The notes: generated from the letters alone by a model not told the origin. A DNA stretch of 64,000 nucleotides from Candidatus Kaiserbacteria bacterium (GCA_028286585.1 JAQBRI010000008.1:84476-148475), one strand, 5' to 3'; counted from the first letter of the stretch, positions 12,581-61,249 are shown. Made by a program: numbers and translations.

Positions 12581-12596
12581 ATTAATTTCCGGCATG

Positions 12597-12986: not shown

Positions 12987-13014
12987 GGTTCCAACCTCGT
13001 CCCAGGCAGCGAGC
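12987..13014 (+). repeat. Cassette-boundary repeat, copy 1
   Basis: GGTTCCAACCTCGTCCCAGGCAGCGAGC, 20 nt upstream of the ATG at 13034. Confidence 0.6.
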
Positions 13015-13033
13015 AATCTGATATAGTTATGTC

Positions 13034-13432
13034 ATGAATCCCGATCCACGCCTACATCACACAGCAAAGCGTATACAACGAGGAAGCCTAGGGAATGTAA
13101 TCGAAATGTTTGCATTACTTGGTTGTAAAGTGTCGTATCGCCCAGAAGGCAATGGTTGGGCAATGATTGGCCAAGAGGGACTTAATTTTGATATCCAGCT
13201 CATTGAGGTAGATGGTATACCGTTAGAAGGTGAGACTCGAAGAGATTCACAAATCTCCTTTGTTTCTGAAAATCCTACTGATCATATTAATAAAGTCCAT
13301 ATATGGGCTGAAGAAAAAAACCTTACATTTATTCAAAAGTCATGGAACGAACGTGAGCATTACTTTGATTTGCCTGATCTCTTTGTTGACTGGGTTGTAG
13401 AAGTAATGCATATATCGGTTGTTGAAAGCTAA
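13034..13432 (+). CDS. Hypothetical protein (cassette gene)
   Basis: 132-aa ORF bounded by repeat copies 1 and 2. Confidence 0.4.
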   Translation: MNPDPRLHHTAKRIQRGSLGNVIEMFALLGCKVSYRPEGNGWAMIGQEGLNFDIQLIEVDGIPLEGETRRDSQISFVSENPTDHINKVHIWAEEKNLTFIQKSWNEREHYFDLPDLFVDWVVEVMHISVVES

Positions 13433-13433
13433 A

Positions 13434-13461
13434 ATTCTAACATCGTCCCATACAGCCAGCC
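13434..13461 (+). repeat. Cassette-boundary repeat, copy 2
   Basis: ATTCTAACATCGTCCCATACAGCCAGCC, starting 2 nt after the stop at 13432. Confidence 0.6.
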
Positions 13462-13485
13462 AATATTGTTTTTTTAATGTAAACT

Positions 13486-14004
13486 ATGTCGATGACACTT
13501 ATTATTATCCTGTTAATCATCATAGGGTTAGCAGTTGTATTTTCTTTAATTCAAAAGGGCGAGAATGTGGAAGTCGAGCATCCGGAAGTACATTCTATTC
13601 AAGAGCAGAAAGATCCCATGCCCTATGTAAGGAAGCAGTATTTTATGACAAATTCAGAGTTAAATTTTTTTAGAAATCTTGAAAAAATAAACCAAAATAA
13701 ATATTTTATTGTTCCTCAAGTATCGTTATCCGGACTAGTTTCAGTTGCTGATAATGAATTGATGAGAAAAACATATAACAATAAAATCGATAGAAAGTCA
13801 GTAGATTTTGTTCTATTTGATAAAGCTACTTTCCTTCCAAAATTGGTAATCGAATTAGATGATAGATCTCATGATAGATATGATAGAAAAATAAGAGATG
13901 AATGGGTCGATGATGTAATGAAGAAGGTGGGTATAAGGATAGTTCACGTCAAGGCTTCTTATTCCTACAATTTGGTGCCAATCGAAGGTCTTTTAGCTGG
14001 TTAA
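13486..14004 (+). CDS. Membrane-anchored DUF2726-like protein (PD-(D/E)xK nuclease-like fold)
   Basis: N-terminal TM helix, then 'FMTNSELNFFRNLE...FIVPQVSL...VDFVLFDK...LVIELDD', which matches the DUF2726 / restriction-endonuclease-like core. Confidence 0.5.
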   Translation: MSMTLIIILLIIIGLAVVFSLIQKGENVEVEHPEVHSIQEQKDPMPYVRKQYFMTNSELNFFRNLEKINQNKYFIVPQVSLSGLVSVADNELMRKTYNNKIDRKSVDFVLFDKATFLPKLVIELDDRSHDRYDRKIRDEWVDDVMKKVGIRIVHVKASYSYNLVPIEGLLAG

Positions 14005-14016
14005 GTATTTTAAAAT

Positions 14017-14045
14017 AGTTCCAACGTGGTCCCAGACTGTCAGCC
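14017..14045 (+). repeat. Cassette-boundary repeat, copy 3
   Basis: AGTTCCAACGTGGTCCCAGACTGTCAGCC. Confidence 0.6.
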
Positions 14046-14114
14046 CTTGACTTAAGTATTTTTGAATGGTAATTTCTTGAAAGAAGTTTCCACTCCCATA
14101 AGGAGCAATTAAAG

Positions 14115-14459
14115 ATGAAGTTCGTTTTCATAGCACATCCAATGTCGGGAGACATAGAAGGAAATATGCAGAAAGTTGTTGCTATCTGTAGAAGTATTCA
14201 TTCCGAAGAAATTATTCCCGTCTTTCCAAGTGCACTGACAAGGAGATATCTCACGCCAGATCCACGAGACCGCGCACTCGCCCAGACGATGATCGAAGAA
14301 TACTTTCGTCGAAGGATCATCGATGAAGTCTGGCTCTATGGCACTGATTTAACAGATGGCATGAAGAGAGAGGTGCGTTTTGCGGTTACCTACAACATTC
14401 CTGTTGTGGCACAGACACCTCAAATGCAACTTTCCCTCGACACATACTTAAAAGTTTGA
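14115..14459 (+). CDS. DUF4406-like (nucleoside 2-deoxyribosyltransferase-like fold) small protein
   Basis: 'MKFVFIAHPMSGD' N-terminus and 'DEVWLYG', typical of the DUF4406/NDT-like family; 114 aa. Confidence 0.4.
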   Translation: MKFVFIAHPMSGDIEGNMQKVVAICRSIHSEEIIPVFPSALTRRYLTPDPRDRALAQTMIEEYFRRRIIDEVWLYGTDLTDGMKREVRFAVTYNIPVVAQTPQMQLSLDTYLKV

Positions 14460-14526
14460 CATCACCTTCGTTTGTATTAAAAACCCTCCGGTCTACATTG
14501 ACGGCGGGTTTTCATTTATCCAAAAA

Positions 14527-14554
14527 GGTTCCAACATCGTCCCAGATTGCAAGC
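14527..14554 (+). repeat. Cassette-boundary repeat, copy 4
   Basis: GGTTCCAACATCGTCCCAGATTGCAAGC. Confidence 0.6.
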
Positions 14555-14612
14555 TAGACGTGTTATTGCAAACGTGGTATTGTTTTGTTCAGAACACAGG
14601 AGGAGAGAGATT

Positions 14613-15032
14613 ATGTCTCAAAATGTTCGCTCGTACTGCGACGCGATTTTCGCGTCAATTCCGACGACCACGATCGAAGTCAAGACTATCGAAGGCACCA
14701 AACGCTTTGTCTTTGGTTTGGTTCAAAGTCAAACGTTGTGCGGCGACGATCTGGGAACATACAACAACTACCAAATCGTCGAGATACGAAGAAGGGGCGA
14801 GGCATCGACGGCAATACTCTCTCTTCAAATGGACACGCGACAATGTGGGCCGACACAAGTCTACATTCGCGGTGAGGCTGCCAAAGATTGGTTTGCTGCG
14901 TCTTCAAAGTGGTTTCCAATCCTTGAAATAACAGCAGATATGTTCGAGGAAGGTGATACACTGATCGTTCCTGTTGCGATCGAGTTTCTCGCACGACTGG
15001 TTCTTTATCGCATCCGAAAACAGGCCTCATAA
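14613..15032 (+). CDS. Hypothetical protein (cassette gene)
   Basis: 'AGGAGGAGAGAGATT' RBS precedes the ATG at 14613. The track ORF starts upstream at 14547 without an RBS. Confidence 0.45.
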   Translation: MSQNVRSYCDAIFASIPTTTIEVKTIEGTKRFVFGLVQSQTLCGDDLGTYNNYQIVEIRRRGEASTAILSLQMDTRQCGPTQVYIRGEAAKDWFAASSKWFPILEITADMFEEGDTLIVPVAIEFLARLVLYRIRKQAS

Positions 15033-15053
15033 ACTTGAGTACACGAAAATCAA

Positions 15054-15092
15054 AAAGGCCGCCTCACCAGTATTGGTTTGGGCGGCTTTTCA
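15054..15092 (+). terminator. Rho-independent terminator after the 14613-15032 gene
   Basis: GGCCGCC...GGCGGC stem followed by TTTTC. Confidence 0.4.
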
Positions 15093-15102
15093 TATGGCAA
15101 AA

Positions 15103-15129
15103 ATTCCAACATCGTCCCAGACTGCCAGC
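15103..15129 (+). repeat. Cassette-boundary repeat, copy 5
   Basis: ATTCCAACATCGTCCCAGACTGCCAGC, the closest match to the consensus. Confidence 0.6.
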
Positions 15130-15190
15130 AGGCATTTTTTAAAAAGAAAACGCCCCCGAAAGAGAGCGTCTCCGTCGGCGGGCAGTTTAG

Positions 15191-15559
15191 TTAGGGTCGT
15201 AAGTACAAATTTCTGTCCTTGAGTCGTTTACATATTGCGCCAATAATATATGAGCTAAAACCGGCTGCGTGTAGGTCAGACCGGGTCTTTTTCAACAGGT
15301 CGCTCACAGTCACAATATTGTTTTGTTCAAGCTTATTGGTTGTAGTTATGCTCAGATCAAGTACATGCACTCCTTCATTGGTCATCGCATCTTCAACATG
15401 CTCGTCAGGAAGAATATCACTGGCCTCGCTTAGTAGTGCTTGGTAGACTTGAAATGCTTCAAGCGTCATTGAATTGCGAAGATGGCCGACTAACCGGCAT
15501 GCTATACACGGCTCAAGCGGCATACAGCCTGCTCGATGGTCAAGAACTAGCACTTTCAT
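15191..15559 (-). CDS. Small protein with an RNA polymerase alpha-subunit C-terminal-domain-like (HhH) domain
   Basis: The C-terminus 'LDLSITTTNKLEQNNIVTVSDLLKKTRSDLHAAGFSSYIIGAICKRLKD' aligns with alpha-CTD '[48 protein letters not shown]'. Start taken at MKVLVLD. Confidence 0.45.
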   Translation of the reverse strand: MKVLVLDHRAGCMPLEPCIACRLVGHLRNSMTLEAFQVYQALLSEASDILPDEHVEDAMTNEGVHVLDLSITTTNKLEQNNIVTVSDLLKKTRSDLHAAGFSSYIIGAICKRLKDRNLYLRP

Positions 15560-15620
15560 GTCATGACTCCCTAAAGGTTCTTTTATATTTATTGCATGAT
15601 AAAAACATTTTGTCAAATAA

Positions 15621-15647
15621 ATTCCAACATTGTCCCATGTTGTAGCC
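15621..15647 (+). repeat. Cassette-boundary repeat, copy 6
   Basis: ATTCCAACATTGTCCCATGTTGTAGCC, lying between two minus-strand genes but still in + orientation. Confidence 0.55.
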
Positions 15648-15759
15648 AACAGCAAAATGAAAACCTCGGTCTGGATATAGATCTAGTCCGGAAGCGATTA
15701 TGTAAAAAAATAAACGGCACCCAAAATTAATCGGGTGCCGTCAGTTTATAGCAAAGAAC

Positions 15760-16290
15760 TTAGATTCTGTAGGTGACCTCTCGCGGGCCGTTGTCCCGAA
15801 GGAAATTCGAAATCCCTTTGAGGTTAGGTCGACTATCTTCCTTGGAGCTTGCAATGTGGCGTAAGAAGCTACGAACGAAATGGAATGCCTGGCGCCCGGG
15901 CCAATATTCGACGTACACTTCCATACTCTCGACTTCCCAGAGATAAAATCCGGAAGTCTGGCTGACGAGTGTCATTAGGACCACGGCACGAGGAAGATTG
16001 GGAAGCTGGTTCTCGCGCCCAAAGGGAGTGCGAACCGACGGCGAGGCAAAAAGAACCTCCGCTTGCACCTTCCTTACCGCTTTGACAGCCCACAATTCTT
16101 CTGCAGGAGGAAGAGCAATATTGAACGCCGCGGAGTTGTCGCGAGAGATGATGGATTCATAGTCGAGTCGGTACTGTGTGAGGAAAATCTCTGTATTGAG
16201 ATTATCCTTAAGCACCTGGGCGATCATGTTCAGCACGTACAGATCGGTCGCGCTGCCAGTCTGTGGCTTGGCTTTCTTTCTTCCAAACAT
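15760..16290 (-). CDS. Hypothetical protein
   Basis: 176-aa ORF with no recognisable motif. Confidence 0.4.
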   Translation of the reverse strand: MFGRKKAKPQTGSATDLYVLNMIAQVLKDNLNTEIFLTQYRLDYESIISRDNSAAFNIALPPAEELWAVKAVRKVQAEVLFASPSVRTPFGRENQLPNLPRAVVLMTLVSQTSGFYLWEVESMEVYVEYWPGRQAFHFVRSFLRHIASSKEDSRPNLKGISNFLRDNGPREVTYRI

Positions 16291-16461
16291 TTTATACCTC
16301 TTTCAGGTATATAGAGCCATATTGCTCCATACCTGCCCTTTCGGCAGTGAATATATTCTACGACTATAATGCTATTTAGTCAATGATTCCTGTAAGCGGG
16401 TCAGTATCGATATTGTTCAAGGAATAAGCAAATTGTTTCAAAAATTTGCTATAATCTCTAT

Positions 16462-17031
16462 ATGAGAAAAGTTGTACTATTTTTGCATCAGTCACTTGAT
16501 GGCTATTGTGGCACCAAAGAGGGAGGATTAGATTGGATTCCTTTTACTCCGGCACTTGAAAAGTATGCTGAACGACTCGTGCAAACAGTCGGATCTCCAA
16601 TGTATGGACGTGTCACATATGAACTAATGAAAAGCTGGTGGCCGACTCTTTTAAATGATGCCTCAGCATCAAAGCATGATAAAAAACATGCTGAATGGAT
16701 TGAAAATGTAGAGAAAATCGTTTTCTCTACTACACTTGGCGAACAAGACTGGAATAATACAAGAGTAATAAGTAGCAATGTAGAAGAAGAGGTTAAGAAA
16801 CTTAAAATGGGTGAAGGGAAAGACTTGGTAATATTTGGCAGTCCAACACTTGCTCGTTCATTAATGGAAATGGATCTTATCGACGAGTTTCAATTTACCA
16901 TTAGTCCAGTTATTCTTGGAGACGGAATAACCTTTATGAGAAGTATTACAAATCGAGTGAATCTTGAGCTTTTGAATTCCGAATCACTAGACGGTGGAAT
17001 CGAAGCACTTCACTACAAGATTGTTAGATAA
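16462..17031 (+). CDS. Dihydrofolate-reductase-like protein (RibD C-terminal domain family)
   Basis: 'LDGYCGTKEGGLDWIP...DLVIFGSPTLARSL', as in YwjB/RibD_C reductases. Confidence 0.65.
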   Translation: MRKVVLFLHQSLDGYCGTKEGGLDWIPFTPALEKYAERLVQTVGSPMYGRVTYELMKSWWPTLLNDASASKHDKKHAEWIENVEKIVFSTTLGEQDWNNTRVISSNVEEEVKKLKMGEGKDLVIFGSPTLARSLMEMDLIDEFQFTISPVILGDGITFMRSITNRVNLELLNSESLDGGIEALHYKIVR

Positions 17032-17089
17032 TAAATTTAAACTATCTTAATGATGGTCAAGGTTTCAAAATAATCGTATAATTATATAT

Positions 17090-17515
17090 ATGACAACAAT
17101 AAGTCCTTGGATTAATTTTAATGGTAATGCAGAAGAAGCATTTACTTTTTATAAATCTGTTTTTGGTGGAGACTTTACAAAGTTGGTTCGTTTTAGTGAT
17201 CTTGCCGGTCCGGAATTTCCGGTTGCAGAAGAAGAGGCGGACAAAATCATGCAAATTGTTTTGCCTATTGGTGGCGCGATGCTTATAGGAAATGATGTAC
17301 CTGCAATTATGGGAAAAGTAAGTGAAAATGAAAATAGAAGTAAAATTCATCATGCAGTAGAAAGCAAAGAGGAGGCTGAAAGAATATTTAATGAGCTTTC
17401 TGTCGGAGGACAAGTAGAGGGGGCAATGGGGGAAAGTCCTTGGGGCACAGACGCCGGTATGTTTAGAGATACATATGGTATTGAGTGGATTATAGAATTT
17501 AATCCGAACAAATAA
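17090..17515 (+). CDS. PhnB-like / VOC (glyoxalase) superfamily protein
   Basis: 'WINFNGNAEEAFTFYKSVFGG' N-terminus, typical of PhnB/3-demethylubiquinone-9 3-methyltransferase-like VOC proteins. Confidence 0.65.
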   Translation: MTTISPWINFNGNAEEAFTFYKSVFGGDFTKLVRFSDLAGPEFPVAEEEADKIMQIVLPIGGAMLIGNDVPAIMGKVSENENRSKIHHAVESKEEAERIFNELSVGGQVEGAMGESPWGTDAGMFRDTYGIEWIIEFNPNK

Positions 17516-17552
17516 ACCAATATAGAACCGGATTTTTACATAAAAAAATCGC

Positions 17553-17813
17553 TTACTGAATGCGATCATCAGTAAGCGATACATTTTCTCCCCAATGTAC
17601 GTATTCAGGATTTTCGGGTCCAGAATATATCATGTATTGTTCGATGTCACAGCACGGACAGTTGTGAGCATCATCAAGCAATTCATTCTTGGAATTATGC
17701 TCCCAGATACACTCGCAAAAGCTACATTTATGCTTATGCGAGCCTTTTAGTAGCTCTATCAGCAGTTGGAAAAGCACAACAACTATGTAGCATATGAGAA
17801 AAATAATATCCAT
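17553..17813 (-). CDS. Small membrane-anchored Cys-rich protein
   Basis: A TM helix, then the CxxC...CPCC cluster 'CSFCECIWEH...HNCPCCD'. Confidence 0.3.
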   Translation of the reverse strand: MDIIFLICYIVVVLFQLLIELLKGSHKHKCSFCECIWEHNSKNELLDDAHNCPCCDIEQYMIYSGPENPEYVHWGENVSLTDDRIQ

Positions 17814-17834
17814 GGCTTGCCACTCCCTGGTTAT

Positions 17835-18218
17835 TCATTCCGATATATTCAGGCCCACAATTCTTGAAGGATCCAGCGTACTGCCGCCTTGCGGAAACAG
17901 TGTGACCGCCTCTCCCGAGATCGGTGAGAGTAAGAAGAGGCGTCCTTCTTCGGCATCCGAAACATTGTAGATAAGCAGGCTTGCGGAGTAGTCGAGGCGG
18001 TCACTGACATTCCATTCACCACCGTCCTCCATCTTGGCGACCCATTTGAGTGTGATATTGAGATCCCCGCAGTTGTCGGATGGAAAACCGGGGACTGGTT
18101 TACCTTCGGTTACCTCGACGGCGGCGATTTCTCCACGGTAGAGATAGTCTTCACCCTCATTTCGAACTTCGAGCTGACCACCTTTATAACGCTGAAGGTC
18201 TTGGGTAGTTAACTTCAT
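17835..18218 (-). CDS. Hypothetical protein
   Basis: 127-aa ORF. Confidence 0.4.
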   Translation of the reverse strand: MKLTTQDLQRYKGGQLEVRNEGEDYLYRGEIAAVEVTEGKPVPGFPSDNCGDLNITLKWVAKMEDGGEWNVSDRLDYSASLLIYNVSDAEEGRLFLLSPISGEAVTLFPQGGSTLDPSRIVGLNISE

Positions 18219-18330
18219 GACGGAATCCTTCTTTCGCCCAGAACAGGCTGGACAGAATGTAGCATATGTTGCACAAAAATTCCACTACTATTCCATGCTG
18301 CCATTGGCTACAGTTTGGTATACTTTGTAT

Positions 18331-18966
18331 ATGAAGTTACTACTTACATCTGCGGGAATAACAAATCAGTCAATTGCCGATTCGTTGATTGATCTTGTTG
18401 GTAAAAAAGTCGAAGATATAAAAATTGGTTTTATTCCAACAGCAGCAAATATTGAAAAGGGAAATAAGGATTGGTTCATTCGGCAATTTATAGATCTCTA
18501 TGCGTATGGATTTACTTGGATCGATATTGTTGATATTTCGATTCCAGAAATTGATTGGAAGAATCGCTTTGCCGAGACGGACGTAATTATGGTAAGCGGA
18601 GGTAATACTTTTTACTTACTCGAGCAAATTCGTAAAGCCGGATTTGCCGAATGGCTTAAAACGATACAGGATACAAAAGTATATGTGGGAATTAGTGCAG
18701 GAAGTATTGTTGCCACCCCTTCAATTGCGATAGCCGCTGTAGATAATGGTGATATCAATTATTCGAATCTAACAGATCTGAATGGTTTTGGATTAGTAGA
18801 TTTTGAAGTTTCGCCTCACACTCCTGAACAGGTAAGTAACGAAGGGAATCTGAATTATATAAAATCTTCGGGAGCAAAGCTATATGGAATAGACAATCAG
18901 AGTGCTATTAGGGTTGTGGATGGGGAAGTAGGCGCTGTCTCCGAAGGTGTCTGGATTGAGTACTAA
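18331..18966 (+). CDS. Peptidase E-like (S51 family, class I glutamine amidotransferase-like fold)
   Basis: 'MKLLLTSAGI' N-terminus and 'SGGNTFYLL...GISAGSIV' catalytic Ser context. Confidence 0.65.
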   Translation: MKLLLTSAGITNQSIADSLIDLVGKKVEDIKIGFIPTAANIEKGNKDWFIRQFIDLYAYGFTWIDIVDISIPEIDWKNRFAETDVIMVSGGNTFYLLEQIRKAGFAEWLKTIQDTKVYVGISAGSIVATPSIAIAAVDNGDINYSNLTDLNGFGLVDFEVSPHTPEQVSNEGNLNYIKSSGAKLYGIDNQSAIRVVDGEVGAVSEGVWIEY

Positions 18967-54887: not shown

Positions 54888-54958
54888 TGCGGGATCGTCT
54901 AATGGTAGGACATCTGCCTCTGAAGCAGAGTATCTTGGTTCGAGTCCAAGTCCCGCAG
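54888..54958 (+). tRNA. tRNA-Gln (anticodon CUG)
   Basis: Acceptor TGCGGGA/TCCCGCA, D-arm GTC-TAATGGTAG-GAC, anticodon stem TCTGC/GCAGA with loop CTCTGAA, T-arm CTTGG-TTCGAGT-CCAAG. Confidence 0.85.
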
Positions 54959-54999
54959 CAAGTCAGTTTCTAATTTATGAAATGTTTTCTAAATAAATT

Positions 55000-55722
55000 A
55001 TGGATTATACAAAACTCAGTTCAGAACATCAGATTAAAGAGCTTTTATCTGCAATCACTCATGTACTTGGAAAATACCAAGATTTGCGAGCAATAATTTC
55101 CTTACCTAATGAAGATGGTCGTAATGTTGGTATATACGGAATCCAAACCACAATATTTTCTTTAGGTCTAACATACCATGCGATAATCGGTGCTGGACTT
55201 ACTCCACAAAGAACAAAAGATGAAGTACTTGCGTCATTTAAGCATTATCACACATTCGAAGGAAAGACTGATGATCAAATGATTGATTTAGCGGCAGATT
55301 TCTGGAAGAACAGCGTGCTAAGTCTGACACATTTTAGACTAGATTCGCTGTTTAGAAATCTCATAAAAGCTCTGGGAGGAAATCCTGGATCTCAAGGATT
55401 TGGCCCGAACACAACATTGCTATTTAACTTAATCACTCTTCGTGACCGGACTACGAATGAAAATATTCTAGATATATTTAGTGCGATGAGAAATTCCCTT
55501 CACAATAATGGAATTCATATAAAAAACCCAATACCACTGACTATTTTTTACGGTATGCAATATGAATTTCAACCAGAAATAGACATCAAATGTGCGTCCT
55601 TCGGACATATTTTTGCCATATTGGAGGCAACTGCCGATGTTCTGACTGATGTGTTAACATCACCCGAAATTATCGCTTTGCCGAAAGTGGAAGATTTGTA
55701 CGCTGATCTTAATCCGGAATAA
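55000..55722 (+). CDS. Hypothetical protein
   Basis: 240-aa ORF, the first gene after tRNA-Gln(CUG). Confidence 0.4.
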   Translation: MDYTKLSSEHQIKELLSAITHVLGKYQDLRAIISLPNEDGRNVGIYGIQTTIFSLGLTYHAIIGAGLTPQRTKDEVLASFKHYHTFEGKTDDQMIDLAADFWKNSVLSLTHFRLDSLFRNLIKALGGNPGSQGFGPNTTLLFNLITLRDRTTNENILDIFSAMRNSLHNNGIHIKNPIPLTIFYGMQYEFQPEIDIKCASFGHIFAILEATADVLTDVLTSPEIIALPKVEDLYADLNPE

Positions 55723-55735
55723 GTCTATACAATAA

Positions 55736-55764
55736 AGTTCTAACATTGTCCCACACTCCCAGCC
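55736..55764 (+). repeat. Cassette-boundary repeat, copy 7 (island 2)
   Basis: AGTTCTAACATTGTCCCACACTCCCAGCC. Confidence 0.55.
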
Positions 55765-55808
55765 ATCTTAAGTGCAGTTTCGAGTCGAGGGGACTATATA
55801 ATGAAATT

Positions 55809-56090
55809 ATGGACGAACAGAAAATAATTGATAATTTTAAATCAGAAGGGTACCAAAAGATATACATATGGGATGCAGAACCCGGAGAAATAGACGAGGA
55901 ACATCAGCATGACTTTGATACTTGTTTAATTATTCTTAAAGGAAAAATTAATATTACTTCTTTAATAGACGCTGTTGTTACTAATACGGCTCATCAGGCT
56001 GGGGCACATATTTTTATTGAAAAGAATAATCCTCATTCTGCAAAAGTCGGTCCAGATGGCTGTCGATACCTAGTTGCTGAAAAACATTAA
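55809..56090 (+). CDS. Cupin-fold small protein
   Basis: 'EHQHDFDTCLIILKGKINI' is a cupin motif. Start taken at MDEQKII. Confidence 0.45.
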   Translation: MDEQKIIDNFKSEGYQKIYIWDAEPGEIDEEHQHDFDTCLIILKGKINITSLIDAVVTNTAHQAGAHIFIEKNNPHSAKVGPDGCRYLVAEKH

Positions 56091-56094
56091 TGTA

Positions 56095-56120
56095 AAAATG
56101 GGGTCTGACCCCATTTTCTA
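56095..56120 (+). terminator. Hairpin terminator AAAATGGGGTC-T-GACCCCATTTT (family copy 1)
   Basis: 11-bp perfect stem followed by TTTTC. Confidence 0.55.
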
Positions 56121-56195
56121 TTTAGAAACTCAAAACTTTTTCCTGAATATAAATCTCACGAAAGATTTAGTATTTCTGACTTAACGGAGGCGGTT

Positions 56196-56414
56196 ATGTC
56201 TGGATATTCCAGAGGACACCAAGAAGATGCGAGAATTAGTTGCATTATTGATTTTATTGATTCTTTCAGAGATAGCAGAGAGGCGCAATCGGATATTCTT
56301 TCTCACGAGAAAGGAACTCGATTGCTCGCTGCCGTGTATGAATCAGAAATCAAGCGGTCACAGGGAGAAAATCCTGTTGTAAATATAAAATTCAATAATC
56401 CGTCTGCAAGTTAA
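56196..56414 (+). CDS. Hypothetical small protein
   Basis: 72-aa ORF preceded by an 'ACGGAGG' RBS. Confidence 0.35.
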   Translation: MSGYSRGHQEDARISCIIDFIDSFRDSREAQSDILSHEKGTRLLAAVYESEIKRSQGENPVVNIKFNNPSAS

Positions 56415-56585
56415 TTTCTCCGAGCTCCGTCAATTATATGTGCCCAAAGATCTCTCGTTAAATTATAAAAAAGTACAAAATGGGTCAAGGAATAATGGGA
56501 TCATGTCCCAATTTATCTATTGACAAACTACGTATAAGATGTACTCTGTATACCAGAAAGAACTGCAGCTCTCGAGGAAAACGCC

Positions 56586-56888
56586 ATGCCCAAACAACGA
56601 ACTGTTGTATCGGATGAGCAATATATCTCAAATGGACTCCTGACTCCTAAAGAGATCCAGGAGCTAAGATGTAGACTCAATCTCACGCGCCTGCAACTTG
56701 CAGAATTAACAGGATGTGGCTCCTCCTCTATCCAACGATGGGAAGCCGGTACATCACTCCAAAATCTGCAAGCTGATAGATTTCTACGACTTTTGGAAAA
56801 GCCGGGGATACTCAAAGAACTGATCCTACTAAACTTTGAACATACAATGCGCTTGTCCCACAAGCAGCAAAGAAGGAGAAAAGGGTGA
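56586..56888 (+). CDS. XRE-family HTH DNA-binding protein
   Basis: 'LTPKEIQELRCRLNLTRLQLAELTGCGSSSIQRWEAG' is a helix-turn-helix. Confidence 0.6.
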   Translation: MPKQRTVVSDEQYISNGLLTPKEIQELRCRLNLTRLQLAELTGCGSSSIQRWEAGTSLQNLQADRFLRLLEKPGILKELILLNFEHTMRLSHKQQRRRKG

Positions 56889-57280
56889 ATCAGATAGAAA
56901 TAGCGGCCGGCAATTTAGTGGCAAAAATCGTCCAAGCGAGCGTGCCAATAGGCGAGTGGTATGCAGACTACTACACGATGCTCACTAATGCCCTCAATAG
57001 ACCCTGGAGTAACAATGTAACAGGGCAAGAAAGTAACATCGAGTTCTTTGCTATGTCTCTCGTGTGGGAGATCTCTGAAGTAGCAAAGGATCCGATCCAT
57101 CAACTCGAAGAGTACAACATCCTGGCTGCGCTTTTTGAAGAGAAAGGCTTCACTGTCGATGCCAGAAAAATGAGCTCTACGGAATATAGCGACTTCGTTC
57201 TCGAAATCTCCTGCACTTGCCCATCAGCTATCAGCGTGCAAATATTCGAAGCAATCGCCAAAAAAAGTCGGCTCCACTAA
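56885..57280 (+). CDS. Hypothetical protein. Its GTG start overlaps the XRE gene stop (GTGA).
   Basis: 131 aa; translationally coupled to the XRE gene. Confidence 0.4.
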   Translation: MNQIEIAAGNLVAKIVQASVPIGEWYADYYTMLTNALNRPWSNNVTGQESNIEFFAMSLVWEISEVAKDPIHQLEEYNILAALFEEKGFTVDARKMSSTEYSDFVLEISCTCPSAISVQIFEAIAKKSRLH

Positions 57281-57406
57281 GCAGATTACTGGAGAGAATA
57301 AATCAAGCGTCTCATTACGAGACGCTTTACCCTTTTATGTACATGGATGAAAATGTAAACTGATCAAATCATTTCTTTTTTCCAGTGCCTGCTGTACTAT
57401 AAAGTT

Positions 57407-57970
57407 ATGGAAATAGGAATTTGGGGTGACAGTATAACCTACGGGGAATGTGATAGTGAAGGACTTGGATGGGTCGGGAGATTTCGTAATTCTTTTTCTC
57501 TTGAAGAATACGTCGGCGTATATAACCGCGGTATTTGTGGAGACACTACTAAAGACTTACTAAAACGCTTTTCAACTGAAGCTGAGTCTATAAAGCCGAA
57601 CAAAATAGTCTTTGCTATCGGTATCAATGACTCAAAGTATCCTATGGAACAGACTTCCAACAACGTTCCACTTCATGAGTTTAAAGAAAATATGCGTTCA
57701 CTTATCGAGCAGGCAAAAGCCTACACCAAAGATATTTATATTGTTGGTGCTACCAAAGTTGATGACGCATTTGCCCTTCAAAGTGGTACTTGTTTTGTAA
57801 ACAAGGATATTCAACTTTACAACGATTGTCTGAAAGAACTTTCCAGCAGATTGAATTTTATAGATGTATTCGACGTTCTTGACCCCGTTACTGATTTACA
57901 TGACGGTTTACATCCAAATGCAGGCGGATATCAAAAGCTTTTTATAGAGATTGCTCCAAAAATTAAATGA
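57407..57970 (+). CDS. SGNH/GDSL-family hydrolase
   Basis: 'IWGDSITYG', 'GINDS' and 'DGLHPN' blocks. Confidence 0.65.
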   Translation: MEIGIWGDSITYGECDSEGLGWVGRFRNSFSLEEYVGVYNRGICGDTTKDLLKRFSTEAESIKPNKIVFAIGINDSKYPMEQTSNNVPLHEFKENMRSLIEQAKAYTKDIYIVGATKVDDAFALQSGTCFVNKDIQLYNDCLKELSSRLNFIDVFDVLDPVTDLHDGLHPNAGGYQKLFIEIAPKIK

Positions 57971-57974
57971 TATA

Positions 57975-58145
57975 TGAAAAAAATCCAAATCCTTATGGTT
58001 CATGGAGGCATGACCTTCAAAAACGAGAAGGACTATTTGCACTACCTAAAAACTAAAAAGGTCACAACAGCCAAAAAGATATACTGGGATGTAGACTTTG
58101 AAGAAAAATTGGGAAAAGGATTTGTAAGAAATGGGGGCTGACCCC
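57975..58145 (+). pseudogene. 56-aa ORF 'MKKIQILMVHGG...' ending inside a terminator hairpin. It may be a truncated hydrolase N-terminus.
   Basis: It resembles the start of an alpha/beta-hydrolase-type esterase but stops after 56 codons within AATGGGGGCTGACCCCATT. Confidence 0.25.
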
Positions 58146-58148
58146 ATT
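58130..58148 (+). terminator. Hairpin AATGGGG-GCTGA-CCCCATT (family copy 2)
   Basis: Same family as the hairpins at 56095 and 59472. Confidence 0.4.
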
Positions 58149-58209
58149 ATCTTGAGTAAGCAAAAAGTGCAGCTGTCTGCAAAATAAACACATATGCTAC
58201 ACTTTTTGA

Positions 58210-58674
58210 ATGACTGAGCGGAAATGTTTGGAATGCGGTTCACCACTTGAGAGCGTAGCTGGGTGCCGTGATTATTTGAACGAGATGATCAAATGGGATT
58301 TTGAGGATTTTACTGGTGTTGGAAAGGTACATCATCTAACAGTACTTTCTTATAATCTCCAGCATCCAAGTTTATATTCTCCCAAGGGCTTGGAGGATGC
58401 AAAAGCTTCATTGCAAGAGTTTTTCAGACATCCAGAATCCTTTAATAGGCATAATGAATGGAACAAGAAAAAGCTTGCATCAAACGTGCGGGATTGGAAA
58501 ATAACTGGTACATCTGAAAATCATGGTGTCTATGTATCAGTGCCCACCTGGAAGATTACTGCTTCTGATGTGGTAAGAGCCGGTCTGCCGCACTATGTCG
58601 AAAATGTAAAAGCTTGGACAGATTCTGTTCTTAAATCTCTTATAGAATCGGGAAATATTGATTCGACTTCCTAG
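58210..58674 (+). CDS. Hypothetical protein with an N-terminal CxxC pair
   Basis: 'CLECGSPL...GC' then a 154-aa ORF. Confidence 0.4.
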   Translation: MTERKCLECGSPLESVAGCRDYLNEMIKWDFEDFTGVGKVHHLTVLSYNLQHPSLYSPKGLEDAKASLQEFFRHPESFNRHNEWNKKKLASNVRDWKITGTSENHGVYVSVPTWKITASDVVRAGLPHYVENVKAWTDSVLKSLIESGNIDSTS

Positions 58675-58691
58675 CGTGTATAATCTTTGAT

Positions 58692-58955
58692 ATGAAAGCA
58701 GTCTTAATTGGGGAACCATCAGGCGTGTCCATGGAAACTATAATGGCTGTGTATCCTCGCCATAAAGAAGTTGTTGATATGTTTATTAAGCGTGGCGAGG
58801 TAATAGGAATAGGCCCTTTCACAGACTTGGGCAATATGGCAATTTTTAGAAGCCGAGAGGCTGCTGAAGAATTTGCGACACTCGATCCATTTATTCTTGA
58901 GGGGATGGTGAAATCATTCACAATTCGAGATTGGAATGATGCAATACTCACATAG
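58692..58955 (+). CDS. YciI-like small protein
   Basis: 'GIGPFTDLGNMAIFRSREAAEEFATLDPFILEGMVKSFTIRDW' matches the YciI-family pattern. Confidence 0.55.
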   Translation: MKAVLIGEPSGVSMETIMAVYPRHKEVVDMFIKRGEVIGIGPFTDLGNMAIFRSREAAEEFATLDPFILEGMVKSFTIRDWNDAILT

Positions 58956-58999
58956 ATTCCTTAAAAAATGTAGTTCGAAAAAAACTGTATACTATTTGT

Positions 59000-59470
59000 A
59001 TGAAATATGTTGCATTGTTGCGCGGCATAATGCCAACAAATCCAAACATGCGCGGCGAAAAGTTGAGAGCCGTATTTGAGGGACTGAAATTTAAAAACGT
59101 GCACACGGTAATTGCAAGTGGGAATGTGGTGTTTGATTCATCTAGCAAAAATACTACCGAGCTTGAAACAAAGATAGAAAAGGAACTTCTCAAAAAGCTT
59201 GGTTTTACAAGTACTACCATGATTCGAAACCACGCAGAATTCGAAGCGTTGGTTAACAAAAAACCATTTAAAGGCGTGAAAGATGAAAAGCCAAACTATC
59301 TTGTTGTGACATTTTTTAAAGACCGACGCAAAGATCTCTGCACAGTTATTGACCTTGGCGCGAGTAAAACACCCAAGTTTATGGCCTATATTGAACGAAA
59401 GCACGGCAAGGCCATGACTACCCGCACGTGGAAGACTGTCAATCGCATACTTAAACAGATGGAAACATAA
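59000..59470 (+). CDS. DUF1697-family protein
   Basis: 'MKYVALLRGIMPTNPNMRGEKLRAVFEGLKFKNVHTVIASGNVVF' is the canonical DUF1697 N-terminus. Confidence 0.65.
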   Translation: MKYVALLRGIMPTNPNMRGEKLRAVFEGLKFKNVHTVIASGNVVFDSSSKNTTELETKIEKELLKKLGFTSTTMIRNHAEFEALVNKKPFKGVKDEKPNYLVVTFFKDRRKDLCTVIDLGASKTPKFMAYIERKHGKAMTTRTWKTVNRILKQMET

Positions 59471-59471
59471 G

Positions 59472-59492
59472 AAATGGGGTCAGGGCCCATTA
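59472..59492 (+). terminator. Hairpin AAATGGGGTCAGGGCCCATT (family copy 3, imperfect)
   Basis: It immediately follows the TAA stop of the DUF1697 gene. Confidence 0.35.
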
Positions 59493-59524
59493 TCGTGTGT
59501 CGATATTTAGAATATACTTACTAT

Positions 59525-60574
59525 ATGCGTCTCTCTACTCAATCAAAATACAAGATATTTGTTCTAGCCTTTTGCTTTCTGGCCATCCTTGCCCTGGTCG
59601 CAGTTGCATACGCGGTGTGGTATTCGTACGAACGTCACGAGAAGCTTGTTCAATCAGAAGTGTGTAAAGAAACACTCGCGAATCCTGCCAAGCCAACTAT
59701 GGTCAAGGGTCCTGACGGCAATCCTGCACCGCTGTACACAATAAATGGATGCACTACCGTAGTGGTACCGCCAACTTTATGGAATCTCATTCGTGGCCGA
59801 ATGGTGTTTGATAACGTACCTAACCGCATGAAGGTAAACCCGTATTCATTTTCAGACATTCTGCGAGGCAGCTATACGTTTGGACCAACTGATATTGTTT
59901 GTGATCAATCTGCGACAACGACTGATTGTTCACAATTTGGGGTAACCTTGAAACCACCTATTGATAGGGCAGCGCTCGCTCAGGAAGCACTAACGCGACT
60001 ACAGGCAAATATCAAAAACGTTACGCCTCATTTTGTCGATGTCAGCAGACTAAACTCACAATCCCTTACCCCCGAAGAATCCGAAATAAAAGACGACATA
60101 ATAGGGGTTTTCATTACAGAAAATCCTGGAGAGAGTGAAGACTATTACTCGACCATCTGGCTCATTGCTGTTGGAAAACGATACATACTTGCATCAAAGC
60201 CAATGGCCGAAAGTTCGTACGATGAAATAATCGATTCACAAACAGGAAAGGTCACCATTATTCCTGGTGAATCGCGATACTATCTTGCATCGAGTGGAAG
60301 AAACACTGCTCTCTATATCGATTATCAAGCTATTCGTACGTATGCACTCGACGCGGCCGACGCTGTGATTGTGCCTGGTTCACAACTTTCTGGAAACGAA
60401 ACGTATCACTCGGGTACTTCTGACGCATATCTTGCCTCTATTCAAACGCATACTAAAAATTCTATAGATATTTCCATTTTTGATTCTTCGCAGATCGTTC
60501 AGAATCCCGATGCACAACCAAATGCCATGCAGACGATGAATAAGAAAATACGGACAGCTACTTTCTTATTTTGA
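59525..60574 (+). CDS. Secreted/anchored hypothetical protein
   Basis: N-terminal TM/signal helix from 'MRLSTQSKYKIFVLAF'; about 350 aa. Confidence 0.4.
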   Translation: MRLSTQSKYKIFVLAFCFLAILALVAVAYAVWYSYERHEKLVQSEVCKETLANPAKPTMVKGPDGNPAPLYTINGCTTVVVPPTLWNLIRGRMVFDNVPNRMKVNPYSFSDILRGSYTFGPTDIVCDQSATTTDCSQFGVTLKPPIDRAALAQEALTRLQANIKNVTPHFVDVSRLNSQSLTPEESEIKDDIIGVFITENPGESEDYYSTIWLIAVGKRYILASKPMAESSYDEIIDSQTGKVTIIPGESRYYLASSGRNTALYIDYQAIRTYALDAADAVIVPGSQLSGNETYHSGTSDAYLASIQTHTKNSIDISIFDSSQIVQNPDAQPNAMQTMNKKIRTATFLF

Positions 60575-60578
60575 GTGG

Positions 60579-60598
60579 TGTTTCAACATCGTCCTAGG
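60579..60598 (+). repeat. Cassette-boundary repeat, copy 8 (island 2, partial)
   Basis: GTTTCAACATCGTCCTAGG. Confidence 0.45.
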
Positions 60599-60658
60599 AA
60601 ATAATAAGGTACCATCAATATAGGTAGTCTTTTTGATATTTTCGGCTATAGTTCCCAT

Positions 60659-61249
60659 ATGATAAAAGCAGTCATATTCGATTTGAATGGAGTCTTTATT
60701 CATAGTCCTAAATTAAGTGATCGTTTTGAGAAAGACTTTGGAATTCCGACAACCATATTCCTTCCCAAGCTTGGAGAAATAATGGACAAAGTCCGCAAGA
60801 CAAACGCTGGAAACGCATTTACGTACTGGGAACCTGTTCTTAAAGAATGGAATATTCAAATGTCAGAGAAAGAATTTTGGGACTATTGGTTTAGTGCAGA
60901 AACTCCTTCGGAAGAAATGATTGCCCTCGCAAAAGAATTAAAAGGAAGGGGAATCAAAATAGTTACACTCTCGAATAACTTTAAGGAGCGGACGGAATAC
61001 TACGGCCACTATCCATGGATGAATGATGTCATGGATAAAACATACTTTTCTTGGCAAACAGGATTGGTAAAACCAGATGTTGAGGCTTGGAATCTGGTCT
61101 TGAAAGATTTGTCACTTGATGCAAGTGAATGCATTTATTTTGATGATCAAGAGAAAAATCTTAAAGCTGCCGAAAGTATTGCAATCAAAGCATATATGTT
61201 TACAAATCCAAAGGACACAAAAGTTCAAATAGAGTCTCTTTTGGAATAA
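60659..61249 (+). CDS. HAD-superfamily hydrolase
   Basis: Motif I 'VIFDLNGV' and C-terminal 'YFDDQEKNL'. Confidence 0.7.
   Translation: MIKAVIFDLNGVFIHSPKLSDRFEKDFGIPTTIFLPKLGEIMDKVRKTNAGNAFTYWEPVLKEWNIQMSEKEFWDYWFSAETPSEEMIALAKELKGRGIKIVTLSNNFKERTEYYGHYPWMNDVMDKTYFSWQTGLVKPDVEAWNLVLKDLSLDASECIYFDDQEKNLKAAESIAIKAYMFTNPKDTKVQIESLLE

Follow-up and report, generated by a model that had tools for sequence, protein, structure and literature searches.

Serine integrases normally need two-sided attachment sites and leave no conserved direct repeats behind. The attP half-sites of these enzymes are reportedly ~5 bp longer than the attB half-sites (Rutherford et al. 2013). Growth of islands at tRNA genes is known from the tycheposons of Prochlorococcus, in which islands form by successive insertion of tRNA-targeting elements (bioRxiv 10.1101/2020.12.28.424599). 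In the literature, we found no description of integron-like single-gene cassette stacks in Patescibacteria such as those analyzed here.

Using a 64,000-nt stretch of DNA from a Candidatus Kaiserbacteria bacterium (hereafter, the window), we followed up an earlier note on a repeat shared by two islands, one behind tRNA-Gln(UUG) and the other behind tRNA-Gln(CUG) (Table 1). The observation was partly confirmed and its interpretation, i.e., common mobilization, common regulation or repeat-mediated exchange, was partly supported, with common mobilization as the best explanation. In the ultra-small Patescibacteria, the repeat probably represents that half of a serine-recombinase attachment site which small tRNA-targeting elements bring with them, and it marks the distal end of such elements at tRNA 3' ends.

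Repeat copies and organization of the two islands

Copies were scored with a 35-nt weight matrix derived from 96 copies, all in other genomes, and the maximum scores over 200 Markov-simulated windows served as the null (highest value, 11.8 bits with the full matrix). The conserved unit, ANAAAGGTTCCAACATCGTCCCAGACNGCCAGCAA, spans ~35 nt instead of 28 nt. It occurs in the window only 3' of the two tRNA-Gln genes, with six copies at 12982-15649 and one at 55731; beyond these seven, the scan of the 64 kb with the 35-nt matrix yielded no copy of at least 5 bits, in agreement with confinement of the repeat to tRNA-associated islands.

Table 1. Features of the two tRNA-Gln islands (positions in the window)
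Feature	Position	Strand	Evidence or remark
tRNA-Gln(UUG), island-1 anchor (putative chromosomal attachment arm)	3597..3670	+	ARAGORN, Rfam
Large serine recombinase gene, 583 aa	3608..5359	-	Pfam Resolvase+Recombinase+Zn_ribbon_recom
Putative integrative element between tRNA-Gln(UUG) and array	3671..12462		boundaries predicted from tRNA end and repeat-like sequence 12463-12497
Divergent repeat-like sequence AAAAAGGTTCGAATAGCCTCTACAGTGTCCAGCAA	12463..12497	+	-3.8 bits vs -20 to -40 in ordinary gaps
Six one-ORF cassettes between repeats	12498..15614		ORF calls, family search
Repeat copy	12982..13016	+	45.3 bits; 28-nt core from 12987
Repeat copy	13428..13462	+	34.5 bits; 28-nt core from 13433
Repeat copy	14012..14046	+	39.4 bits; 28-nt core from 14017
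Repeat copy	14522..14556	+	47.0 bits; 28-nt core from 14527
Repeat copy	15097..15131	+	44.7 bits; 28-nt core from 15102
Repeat copy, right half decayed	15615..15649	+	19.5 bits; 28-nt core from 15620
Island-1 stretch beyond array	15650..18966		homologues in repeat-bounded cassettes of other genomes
tRNA-Gln(CUG), island-2 anchor	54888..54959	+	ARAGORN, Rfam
First unit of island 2, tRNA end to repeat	54960..55730	+	ORF 55000-55722, 240 aa, no family match
Repeat copy 1 of island 2	55731..55765	+	41.3 bits; AATAAAGTTCTAACATTGTCCCACACTCCCAGCCA
4.8-kb stretch, ~ten accessory genes	55766..60573		no repeat detectable in gaps
Putative decayed half-copy	60574..60608	+	left half 14.7 bits; right half lost; GTTTCAACATCGTCCTA at 60580
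HAD hydrolase gene behind half-copy, cassette-type	60659..61249	+	Pfam

The earlier note had placed two + strand copies of the island-1 repeat in intergenic gaps of island 2. Island 1 indeed contains six + strand copies (19.5-47 bits), and 55736 is a genuine copy (41 bits compared to a null maximum of ~12): exactly as described, its 28-nt core AGTTCTAACATTGTCCCACACTCCCAGCC lies on the + strand between the first ORF of the island and a cupin-like ORF (55803-56090). The second copy, GTTTCAACATCGTCCTAGG, starts at 60580, not 60579, and is only a half-site, with a match limited to the first ~18 nt (-0.7 bits with the full matrix). Its left-half score is no higher than the 95th percentile of the maxima obtained over whole null windows; thus, the half-copy alone is not significant. 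A left-half score of 15.0 bits is also found at 57653, within the SGNH hydrolase gene, so such scores are possible without a real site. Among the 11 intergenic gaps of island 2, the half-copy is a clear outlier (left-half scores of the other gaps, -29 to -10), and homologues of the HAD gene behind it are located in repeat-bounded cassettes (L191; L-numbers denote compared sequence stretches from other genomes) or form the first unit after tRNA-Gln (L284). Together, these two observations favor the interpretation of 60580 as a decayed left half of the repeat, which is marginal on its own.

The two islands were said to follow their tRNA genes in exactly the same way, which does not hold. Island 2 starts at tRNA-Gln(CUG), with ~0.8 kb between the tRNA and the first repeat (usual range elsewhere, 0.4-1.3 kb), whereas an 8.8-kb recombinase element separates the island-1 array from tRNA-Gln(UUG). 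The 3' end of its recombinase gene overlaps the tRNA-Gln 3' end, and the protein is identical to the database record 'Resolvase protein [Candidatus Kaiserbacteria]'. The element also carries an AAA_25 replication-type ATPase (5492-7543), a LOOT RNA (8060-8175), and five further ORFs without family matches. The sequence at its far end has 28 nt from GGTTC to CAGC, as in the repeat, and is a candidate distal attachment arm of this element. The clade of the window recombinase differs from that of the canonical-repeat recombinases (~30-35% identity); three relatives examined overlap tRNA-Gln or tRNA-Asn 3' ends, and in none of them was the canonical repeat present within 10 kb. The cognate recombinase, i.e., one of the canonical-repeat clade, is absent from the 64-kb window, both islands included.

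The six island-1 cassettes contain ORFs 12597-12938 (- strand), 13034-13432, 13486-14004 (DUF2726), 14115-14459 (DUF7768), 14613-15032, and 15191-15559 (- strand); DUF2726 homologues adjoin repeats in L036 and L042. Beyond the array, three genes (16462-17031, 17835-18218, and 18217-18966) have homologues with a repeat on one or both sides in L241, L104, L072, and L102, and the scored gaps of this stretch contain no detectable repeat; it is probably an older part of island 1 that lost its repeats. The 4.8-kb stretch of island 2 encodes cupin-like, HTH/MqsA-like, SGNH hydrolase, DUF5946, DUF1697, and unknown proteins, and an SGNH hydrolase homologue adjoins a repeat in L289. The previous labels HTH, SGNH, DUF1697, and HAD were confirmed, the cupin match is sub-threshold only, and the 'YciI-like' gene (58210-58674) belongs to DUF5946. 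This stretch may represent either old cassettes with decayed repeats or one larger insert.

Arrays in other Patescibacteria

The repeat is nearly identical in sequence across Patescibacteria, with sharp conservation edges at -5 and +29; comparison of the flanks outside these edges across copies revealed no conservation. Homology between otherwise unrelated arrays ends at the repeat edges (HSP ends at -1..+1 and +23..+30). The compared sequences establish the anatomy of the arrays, i.e., direct repeats separating mostly one-ORF units (77 units, median 540 bp; one ORF in 57, more than one in 12, and none in 8), with repeat-to-repeat intervals of 147-2353 bp. The ORF often reaches right up to the repeat and is encoded on the repeat strand in 45 of 69 cassettes and on the opposite strand in the other 24. 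Genes upstream of the anchors recur as well: homologues of SerS, Dus, and HolB-like proteins precede tRNA-Gln(UUG) and arrays in L007, L049, L110, and L077, and those of RF-1, FtsE, FtsX, and CTP synthase precede tRNA-Gln(CUG) and arrays in L036, L056, L378, and L379.

These features bear on the proposed common regulation, under which the repeat would act on the gene behind it as a regulatory or RNA signal, namely as a promoter, operator, leader, or tRNA-like processing site. Its position 20-100 nt 5' of + strand ORFs, in six of eight cases in the window, is as expected for such a signal; however, the inverted ORFs and the ORF-less units are not, promoter-like and terminator sequences belonging to the units themselves flank the repeat, and homology blocks stop at the repeat. 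Furthermore, inspection revealed no sigma-70, sigma-54, or ECF spacing, and the repeat has neither an Rfam match nor a fold. A regulatory role is therefore hardly credible.

One unit occurs in two contexts: it is 97% identical over 480 nt behind tRNA-Gln(UUG) in L173 and behind tRNA-Gln(CUG) in L263, where it lies directly 3' of a 23-nt tRNA-like variant. The homology begins directly after ..CAAC and stops within the unit's own repeat, and the same two-context pattern was observed for L033/L253 and L229/L265. Thus, cassettes are shared between the two locus types across contigs; conversely, the repeat-mediated (homologous) exchange suggested in the earlier note found no support for the two islands of the window, as no cassette is common to both. 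More generally, the repeat could be a portable homology anchor, with cassettes swapped by natural transformation and RecA between 35-nt repeats. The near identity of repeats across lineages would fit such swapping, as would the competence genes of Patescibacteria and the DprA gene adjoining one locus. This explanation is nevertheless very unlikely: the left partners in L173 and L263 share only ~5-6 nt and the junction is exact, the last nucleotides of the repeat vary with the local tRNA (see below), and it would be left unexplained why the repeat is so strictly linked to tRNA 3' ends and a recombinase gene.

tRNA anchoring and the associated recombinase

The repeat, which in the earlier note linked the two tRNA-Gln islands, is associated with tRNA-Gln elsewhere as well: in 33 of the 36 cases with a tRNA seen upstream, the array lies directly 3' of an intact tRNA-Gln (UUG or CUG) on the same strand, and there are almost no tRNAs 3' of arrays. 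Apart from a net insertion of 5 nt, the repeat is similar to the 23 nt at the end of tRNA-Gln (alignment score 7.9, compared to 3.4 +/- 0.7 for shuffled sequences; none of 1000 shuffles reached 7.9), and tRNA-Gln scores above every other tRNA type. The span from GGTTC to CAGC is 28 nt in the repeat and 23 nt in the tRNA, which would fit the ~5-bp difference said to separate attP and attB half-sites.

Alignment to local tRNAs resolves the repeat into a constant 23-nt left module (ANAAAGGTTCCAACATCGTCCCA) and a right part of ~10 nt. The latter corresponds to the target tRNA at its 3' end, with matches at 12 of 12 nt for tRNA-Ser (L382), 10 of 12 for tRNA-Lys (L380), and 9 of 12 for tRNA-Gln (L381). 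Where the tRNA ends in ..AAC, all 10 repeats (6 arrays) end in AAC, compared to 0 of 68 (26 arrays) where it ends in ..AGC (Fisher's test, 8e-13 by site; ~1e-6 by our own arithmetic, with each array counted once). In most tRNA-Gln arrays, the right module matches the local tRNA in the last ~4 nt only (2.96 vs 2.61 of 6 variable positions, p=0.04). Only the right ~4-12 nt copy the tRNA end, the remainder being a non-tRNA module. True 23-nt tRNA-Gln 3' fragments occasionally occupy the repeat position (L033, L221, L229, L263).

The only recurrent recombinase at loci found through the repeat belongs to the L221 clade (L221, L226/L256, L240, L217, L247), which comprises large serine recombinases of ~490 aa, usually encoded beside a rolling-circle Rep gene. 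At these loci, the gene invariably runs opposite to the repeats and terminates on a GGTTC..CAGC element. Independently of the repeat, we selected six relatives (47-69% identity) solely by protein similarity and contig size. Each of the six adjoins the 3' end of a tRNA or a fragment of one (three at Gln, one at a Gln 3' fragment, one at Lys, and one at Ser; the L377 recombinase borders such a fragment and no intact tRNA). In every case, the repeats, numbering 14, 7, 8, 1, 2, and 1, are confined to the side and strand that had been predicted. The repeat lies at the distal end of these elements, the single-copy cases at tRNA-Lys and tRNA-Ser included. The association between repeat and recombinase clade is thus demonstrated at the level of sequence. 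It should be noted that a recombinase gene is present in ~10 of 184 repeat-containing stretches, always in the tRNA-proximal unit, and that more than 90% of the stretches contain none within the visible 1-14 kb.

The scarcity of recombinases near most arrays could mean that the repeats are sites of another enzyme encoded elsewhere, for example, an integron-like tyrosine recombinase, with serine elements merely sharing the tRNA-Gln hotspot. The layout, in which one-ORF units each close with a site at the 3' end and the repeat orientation is constant, agrees with this possibility, as does a conservation that is one-sided as in attI/attC. However, an enzyme of this kind is improbable, given the distal repeat in six of six recombinase-selected loci, including the array-less tRNA-Lys and tRNA-Ser singles. 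Among 148 + 135 large ORFs near arrays, no tyrosine recombinase family had more than two members, and the ORFs flanking both window arrays had no Phage_integrase match. No hairpin was found in either strand (single-stranded folds of six + strand and four - strand sites; z-scores -1.1 to +1.0, no common stem), and TTCYAAC has no inverted partner, which an attC site would have, within 140 nt.

Under the attachment-site explanation, elements with a ~490-aa large serine recombinase, usually with Rep, would insert at tRNA 3' ends, mostly of tRNA-Gln. Insertion would bring the tRNA end up against the recombinase gene at its 3' end (attL) and leave the repeat at the opposite end of the element (attR), directed outward. 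The constant left module is presumed to be the recombinase-binding part, and strand exchange would occur in the right ~10 nt, the putative copy of the acceptor-strand 3' end of the target tRNA. Repeated insertion at one tRNA would displace older units outward and thus produce a head-to-tail stack in which each unit is terminated by a repeat. The window would then contain two stacks, at 12.5-15.6 kb behind tRNA-Gln(UUG) and, behind tRNA-Gln(CUG), one unit plus a decayed trace at 60580. The L221-type recombinase is the likely catalyst of exchange at the repeat; the crossover, as judged from comparative boundaries, would fall within repeat positions ~18-28, and any origin proposed for the recombinase-less units is tentative.

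On the last point, a different origin of the stacks is possible, albeit less probable, in which the attachment-site identity of the repeat is kept: the one-gene units would not be mobile cassettes, but eroded cargo ends of successive recombinase-Rep elements that lost the recombinase and Rep genes by deletion. Complete elements hold one or two small cargo ORFs beside the repeat, and tRNA-Gln is still bordered by C-terminal remnants of a recombinase of 125 aa in L037 and 39 aa in L049, with cargo and repeats behind them. Repeat scores drop with distance from the recombinase, from 50 to ~19 bits (L378, L379), and the window has decayed copies (15615, 60574) and repeat-less stretches of genes that are cassettes elsewhere. 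Conversely, erosion is hard to reconcile with the tidiness of the 77 units and with the boundaries, exactly at the sites, of the unit shared by L173 and L263; moreover, a search of 1.05 Mb for pieces of recombinase or Rep genes between repeats, which would miss fragments shorter than ~30 aa, yielded none.

Comparison with known systems

Several repeat classes were rejected. In a CRISPR array, spacers would be 25-50 nt, compared to the ORF-containing intervals here; REP/MITE elements do not fit a non-palindromic repeat confined in the window to two tRNA-Gln loci. The ~28-nt repeats of Xer/dif modules (pdif, IMEX) similarly bound small accessory modules; however, the arms GGTTCCAACAT / CGTCCC / AGACTGCCAGC lack dyad symmetry, in contrast to the two partly palindromic 11-nt arms around a 6-nt spacer in such modules, and the repeats are direct, not inverted, chromosomal, and tRNA-anchored.

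Integrons and CALINs share with these arrays the head-to-tail, mostly one-ORF units of ~0.5 kb, each with a terminal recombination site, the constant site orientation with some inverted ORFs, the fixed chromosomal anchor, and the mainly small uncharacterized or toxin-antitoxin-like cargo. A crossover near the 3' end of the site, as in integrons, would make the site move with the upstream unit. Unlike attC, a folded imperfect hairpin with R''/L''/L'/R' boxes (R'', RYYYAAC; R', GTTRRRY) whose structure is conserved more than its sequence, the site here is linear, 35 nt long, and sequence-conserved across phyla. IntI is missing, and a large serine recombinase encoded within a unit is associated instead; the stack is anchored at a tRNA gene 3' end, not at attI.

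Tycheposons likewise insert at tRNA genes. Older elements are displaced into the island by newer arrivals, and partial-tRNA-like repeats and degraded remnants mark old events; their integrases, a minority of which are large serine recombinases, are paired with replication genes. Their repeats, however, are plain partial tRNAs, in contrast to a constant 23-nt module plus ~10 nt of tRNA end, and their units are multi-kb with integrases, whereas most units here are single genes without a mobility gene. One integrase per unit, the pattern of tRNA-anchored islands, was not observed, with a recombinase in only ~10 of 184 stretches.

Serine-integrase attP/attB systems (phiC31, Bxb1, A118/LI integrase) are similar in that the recombinase gene lies beside the attachment site and the window's own element is without long target duplications. 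From the outer (GGTTC) to the inner motif, both of which are shared, the putative element arm would exceed the putative chromosomal arm by 5 nt, which may be a further similarity. Known serine-integrase sites are two-sided and used once, whereas here one side is conserved and the same tRNA is apparently reused many times; since conservation ends at the right edge of the repeat, such reuse would require a relaxed right half-site.

Repeat copies in the window and in other genomes

A 35-nt weight matrix was built from 96 repeat copies in other genomes, so that the copies in the window could be scored without circularity. It gave seven matches in the window, all on the + strand (see the table), compared to a top score of 11.8 in 200 simulated windows that served as the null; no further site of at least 5 bits was found in the window. 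A degenerate 15-mer had 8 matches on the + strand of the window, compared to ~1 expected, and six of these are located at 12988-15635 with a spacing of 446-584 bp. The earlier note had placed two copies of a 28-nt repeat in the island behind tRNA-Gln(CUG) (island 2). Both lie downstream of this gene, and the copy at 55736 has the sequence reported there; the second copy is present, but its start is at 60580 and its likeness to the copy at 55736 is limited to the first ~18 nt. Its overall score is -0.7 bits, and its left half, at 14.7 bits, equals the 95th percentile of the null maxima; within the SGNH gene, the left half of the matrix gives a comparable 15.0 bits at 57653. The 60580 copy is the sole outlier among the other intergenic gaps of island 2, and homologs of the HAD gene behind it are repeat-bounded cassettes in other loci. 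With moderate confidence, we regard it as a decayed copy of the repeat.

Coordinates of features in the window and in comparison loci (L-numbers)
Feature	Position	Strand	Remark
tRNA-Gln(UUG), second tRNA-Gln of the window	3597-3670		start of island 1
Recombinase gene of the window	3608-5359		other clade, ~30-35% identical; paired with AAA_25 ATPase
LOOT RNA (Rfam RF03000)	8060-8175	+	full-length match, 84 bits vs gathering score 46
Divergent 28-nt arm	12463-12497		apparent end of the window recombinase element
Repeat copies	12987, 13433, 14017, 14527, 15102	+	34-47 bits
Repeat copy	15620	+	19.5 bits
tRNA-Gln(CUG)	54888-54959		start of island 2
Repeat copy	55736	+	41.3 bits
Island 1, order			tRNA-Gln(UUG), 8.8-kb element of the other recombinase clade, six canonical units (12498-15649), repeat-less stretch
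Island 2, order			tRNA-Gln(CUG), one unit (54960-55765), 4.8 kb of accessory genes without repeats, half-copy (60580), HAD gene
47-nt terminator-like repeat	20889-20935, 22730-22776, 23215-23261		three copies
69-nt leader	22280-22348, 22765-22833		83% identical; upstream of small ORFs 22346-22684 and 22831-23172
Duplicate of tRNA-Gln(CUG) 5' end	54751-54776	+	first ~21 nt (TTGCGGGATCGTCTAATGG), 135 nt upstream of the real gene
Hairpin AATGGGGNNNNNCCCCATT	56097-56115, 58130-58148, 59473-59491		followed by T-rich sequence
30-nt GC-rich hairpin and flank (AAAGAAAAAGACCCGGCTGTATGCCGGGTC)	61297-61326, 63477-63506		93% identity
Reverse-transcriptase genes (RVT_1, YxDD)	L017 1932-3206, L104 4064-4921, L217 8779-10068, L247 2662-3669		cargo

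Scanning one genome per species with TTCYAACATYGTCCCA, we found multi-copy arrays in Patescibacteria, including Saccharibacteria, Parcubacteria/Paceibacterota, Nomurabacteria, Berkelbacteria, Wolfebacteria, and others (the source genome of the window is Candidatus Kaiserbacteria), and single matches outside Patescibacteria that looked like chance. A metagenome scan added 120 stretches, for a total of ~430 sites in 184 stretches. The conserved unit is ANAAAGGTTCCAACATCGTCCCAGACNGCCAGCAA, with sharp edges at -5 and +29 and no conservation to the left or right of it. The units between sites are 147-2353 bp long (median 540 bp) and mostly contain one ORF, in the orientation of the site in 45 cases and in the opposite orientation in 24; eight units have no ORF. 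Promoter-like and terminator sequences of many units directly adjoin the repeat. Together with the ORF orientations, these sequences exclude that the repeat acts as a promoter, leader or terminator, and point to repeats as unit boundaries; an RNA motif was likewise rejected, there being no Rfam match and no fold. Single-strand folds of either strand contained no hairpin (z-scores -1.1 to +1.0), thus the sites are not attC; both attC and dif sites are contradicted by sequence and structure, the dyad arms of dif being absent.

A ~33-nt motif, TCT(A/G)GACAGAACC(C)TAACA(T/C)A(G/A)ATTGCATAAAGG, precedes a subset of repeats, ~10-15% by a rough estimate made by eye (examples: L069 5700-5760, L223 1400-1436, L033, L035, and L018). 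This motif begins with an incomplete inverted copy of the repeat (TCTGGAC..GAACC compared to GGTTC..GTCCCAGA), and it may be a promoter common to minus-strand cassettes, or else an inverted arm with a function.

A phage origin of the repeat was considered and rejected. A scan of viral contigs with a 16-mer gave 47 matches, mostly to one family of high-GC DNA cytosine-methyltransferase genes, and a 21-27-nt identity to the repeat (TCGAAGGTTCCAACATCGTCCCAGACA) was found in many contigs (L121-L167, which are viral, and L023, L061, L095, and L119). In the two contigs examined, which are high-GC and prophage-like, the match lies inside the methyltransferase gene and encodes ..VWDDVGTF.. on the opposite strand; the same gene accounts for the matches in Tabrizicola, Pannonibacter, and Azospirillum. 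The identity looks coincidental. It should be noted that even the third codon positions of the match do not vary among diverged copies, a nucleotide-level invariance that is odd despite this reading.

The genes in the repeat-less stretch of island 1 are cassettes in other loci. For the cassettes of the window, PADLOC gave no match and NCBIfam only one weak match (RpoA C-terminal-domain-like, cassette protein 15191-15559); ORF 55000-55722 had no match among solved structures. Reverse-transcriptase genes are recurrent cargo in or beside arrays and recombinase elements, and a tRNA-Asn element (L375) carries an HpaII restriction-modification system with Vsr, which suggests defence-type cargo, although PADLOC is blank on the cassettes of the window. 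Hairpin AATGGGGNNNNNCCCCATT occurs three times, compared to 0.13 expected, always in intergenic gaps of island 2, and is absent from 375 other loci compared; it may be a common terminator, or may mark the boundary of that part of this island which has no repeats. The 47-nt repeats and 69-nt leaders look like a tandemly duplicated small-gene family, and hairpin AAAGAAAAAGACCCGGCTGTATGCCGGGTC, located behind two convergent gene pairs, is probably a common bidirectional terminator.

The tRNA-Gln anchor and the probable exchange point

In 36 cases, a tRNA gene is located up to 3 kb upstream of the first site, and 33 of these genes are tRNA-Gln (21 UUG, 12 CUG), always on the same strand and usually 0.4-1.3 kb away, i.e., at the distance of one unit; downstream of arrays there are almost no tRNAs. 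Upstream of each of its two tRNA-Gln genes, the window shares housekeeping genes in synteny with array loci elsewhere; therefore, the two islands occupy the two standard array positions. For strain variants of the window, the records comprised only short contigs of the same sample, and these break at the tRNA-Gln genes; short-read assemblies of these genomes break there because of the repeats.

The repeat is similar to the 3'-terminal 23 nt of tRNA-Gln and contains, relative to these, a net insertion of 5 nt (GGTTC---GATC--CCTAGTCTCCCAGC compared to GGTTCCAACATCGTCCCAGACTGCCAGC), a likeness that exceeds that to every other tRNA type and that of all 1000 shuffles. Behind tRNAs ending in ..AAC, 10 of 10 repeats (6 arrays) end in AAC, compared to 0 of 68 (26 arrays) behind tRNAs ending in ..AGC. 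The terminal nucleotides of the repeat track the tRNA among tRNA-Gln arrays.

Loci L173 and L263 share one unit at 97% identity over 480 nt. In L173, it directly follows tRNA-Gln(UUG); in L263, it is located behind tRNA-Gln(CUG), and a 23-nt tRNA-like variant precedes it. The homology starts right after ..CAAC of the tRNA or of the variant and stops inside the unit's own repeat, at about position 20-29; the pairs L033/L253 and L229/L265 have the same pattern. When all shared segments are taken together, the ends of the alignments concentrate at positions -1..+1 and +23..+30 of the repeat. These boundaries indicate that a unit consists of a body with a repeat at its 3' end, that either the tRNA 3' end or a repeat can serve as its left partner, and that the exchange point probably falls within the final ~10 nt of the repeat; homologous cassette pairs confine the crossover to this interval, and no finer.

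The duplicated 5' end of tRNA-Gln(CUG) in the window, and a tRNA-Gln(CUG) pseudogene without its 5' end located just behind a repeat in L217, indicate that rearrangements also affect the 5' side of these tRNAs. A complete atypical tRNA-Gln(UUG) (L221 8-126; T-loop GGATCGTAC) is followed 15 nt on by a canonical tRNA-Gln 3' fragment abutting the recombinase gene, and in L033 a tRNA-Gln 3' fragment lies directly behind tRNA-Pro. Such loci suggest that whole tRNA genes can be imported or displaced.

Recombinases at the arrays

No tyrosine recombinase recurs near the arrays. The enzyme that does recur is a large serine recombinase, and a rolling-circle Rep gene (REP_ORF2-G2P/RepSA) usually lies in front of it; the recombinase gene is always antisense to the repeats, with the stop codon on the tRNA-Gln 3' end or on a GGTTC..CAGC fragment. 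Because these loci had been found through the repeat, an independent test was run on six relatives of the recombinase (47-69% identity), selected by protein similarity and contig size only. All six overlap a tRNA 3' end or a fragment (Gln in three, a Gln 3' fragment, Lys, and Ser), and in all six the repeats are confined to the upstream side of the recombinase gene and to the predicted strand (14, 7, 8, 1, 2, and 1 copies). The elements at tRNA-Lys and tRNA-Ser, 3.8-5 kb in size, each have one repeat at the far end, and it combines the canonical left module with a right module that is the end of that tRNA (10 of 12 nt for Lys, 12 of 12 nt for Ser).

Within the window, no cognate recombinase for the canonical repeat was found. 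The window's own recombinase was ruled out as the enzyme, since three of its relatives, located at tRNA-Gln or tRNA-Asn, lack a canonical repeat over a distance of 10 kb. The element that carries the recombinase seems to terminate in a divergent 28-nt arm of its own; a comparable arm was not found for locus L371, and only a weak candidate was found in L375. The LOOT RNA match lies inside this element, just upstream of ORF 8234-9394, and an orphan RNA motif inside a Kaiserbacteria mobile element may hint at the role of LOOT RNA.

A proposed modular attachment site and known systems

From sequence comparison, the best reading of the repeat is that it is the attachment-site arm which recombinase-Rep elements bring with them. 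Once such an element has inserted at the 3' end of a tRNA, this arm would remain at the distal junction; arrays would then be stacks of such distal junctions. The GGTTC-to-CAGC spacing is 28 nt in the repeat, compared to 23 nt in the tRNA. The attP half-site of serine integrases is reportedly ~5 bp longer (Rutherford et al. 2013), a rule that the difference in spacing would fit.

The one-gene units without a recombinase are candidates for mobilisation in trans, consistent with their tidy structure, with the L173/L263 pair, and with the finding of no recombinase or Rep fragments between repeats. Alternatively, the units could be eroded full elements: recombinase C-terminal remnants adjoin tRNA-Gln in L037 and L049, and repeat decay grows with distance.

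If the link to the recombinase is true, the system would be a natural serine-integrase system with two unusual properties: a short exchangeable module appears to set the target, with Gln, Lys, and Ser versions attached to the same constant module, and a single landing site can seemingly be used over and over. The two properties are relevant to integrase-based genome engineering. The genomes of Patescibacteria are tiny, and little is understood of how these bacteria exchange genes. The 35-nt sequence is a one-line search key for the main variable loci behind tRNA-Gln in Saccharibacteria, Parcubacteria/Paceibacterota, Berkelbacteria, and others, and gives access to a pool of hundreds of bounded accessory genes, mostly uncharacterised.

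More tentatively, Patescibacteria may have an integron-like gene capture that works on a different principle. A large serine recombinase of small Rep-encoding elements would insert single-gene circles serially at the tRNA-Gln 3' end via a site of two modules (a constant one for protein binding, and a short, target-setting copy of the tRNA end), the tRNA staying usable as a landing pad after every insertion. It is mainly in this way that these minimal genomes would sample accessory genes. Literature searches on the repeat sequence, on Patescibacteria/CPR with integron, attC, cassette or tRNA-Gln, and on Patescibacteria serine recombinases found no description. The nearest described concept is that of tycheposons (bioRxiv 10.1101/2020.12.28.424599), in which islands are built by successive tRNA-targeted insertions, and the nearest architecture is that of the integron.
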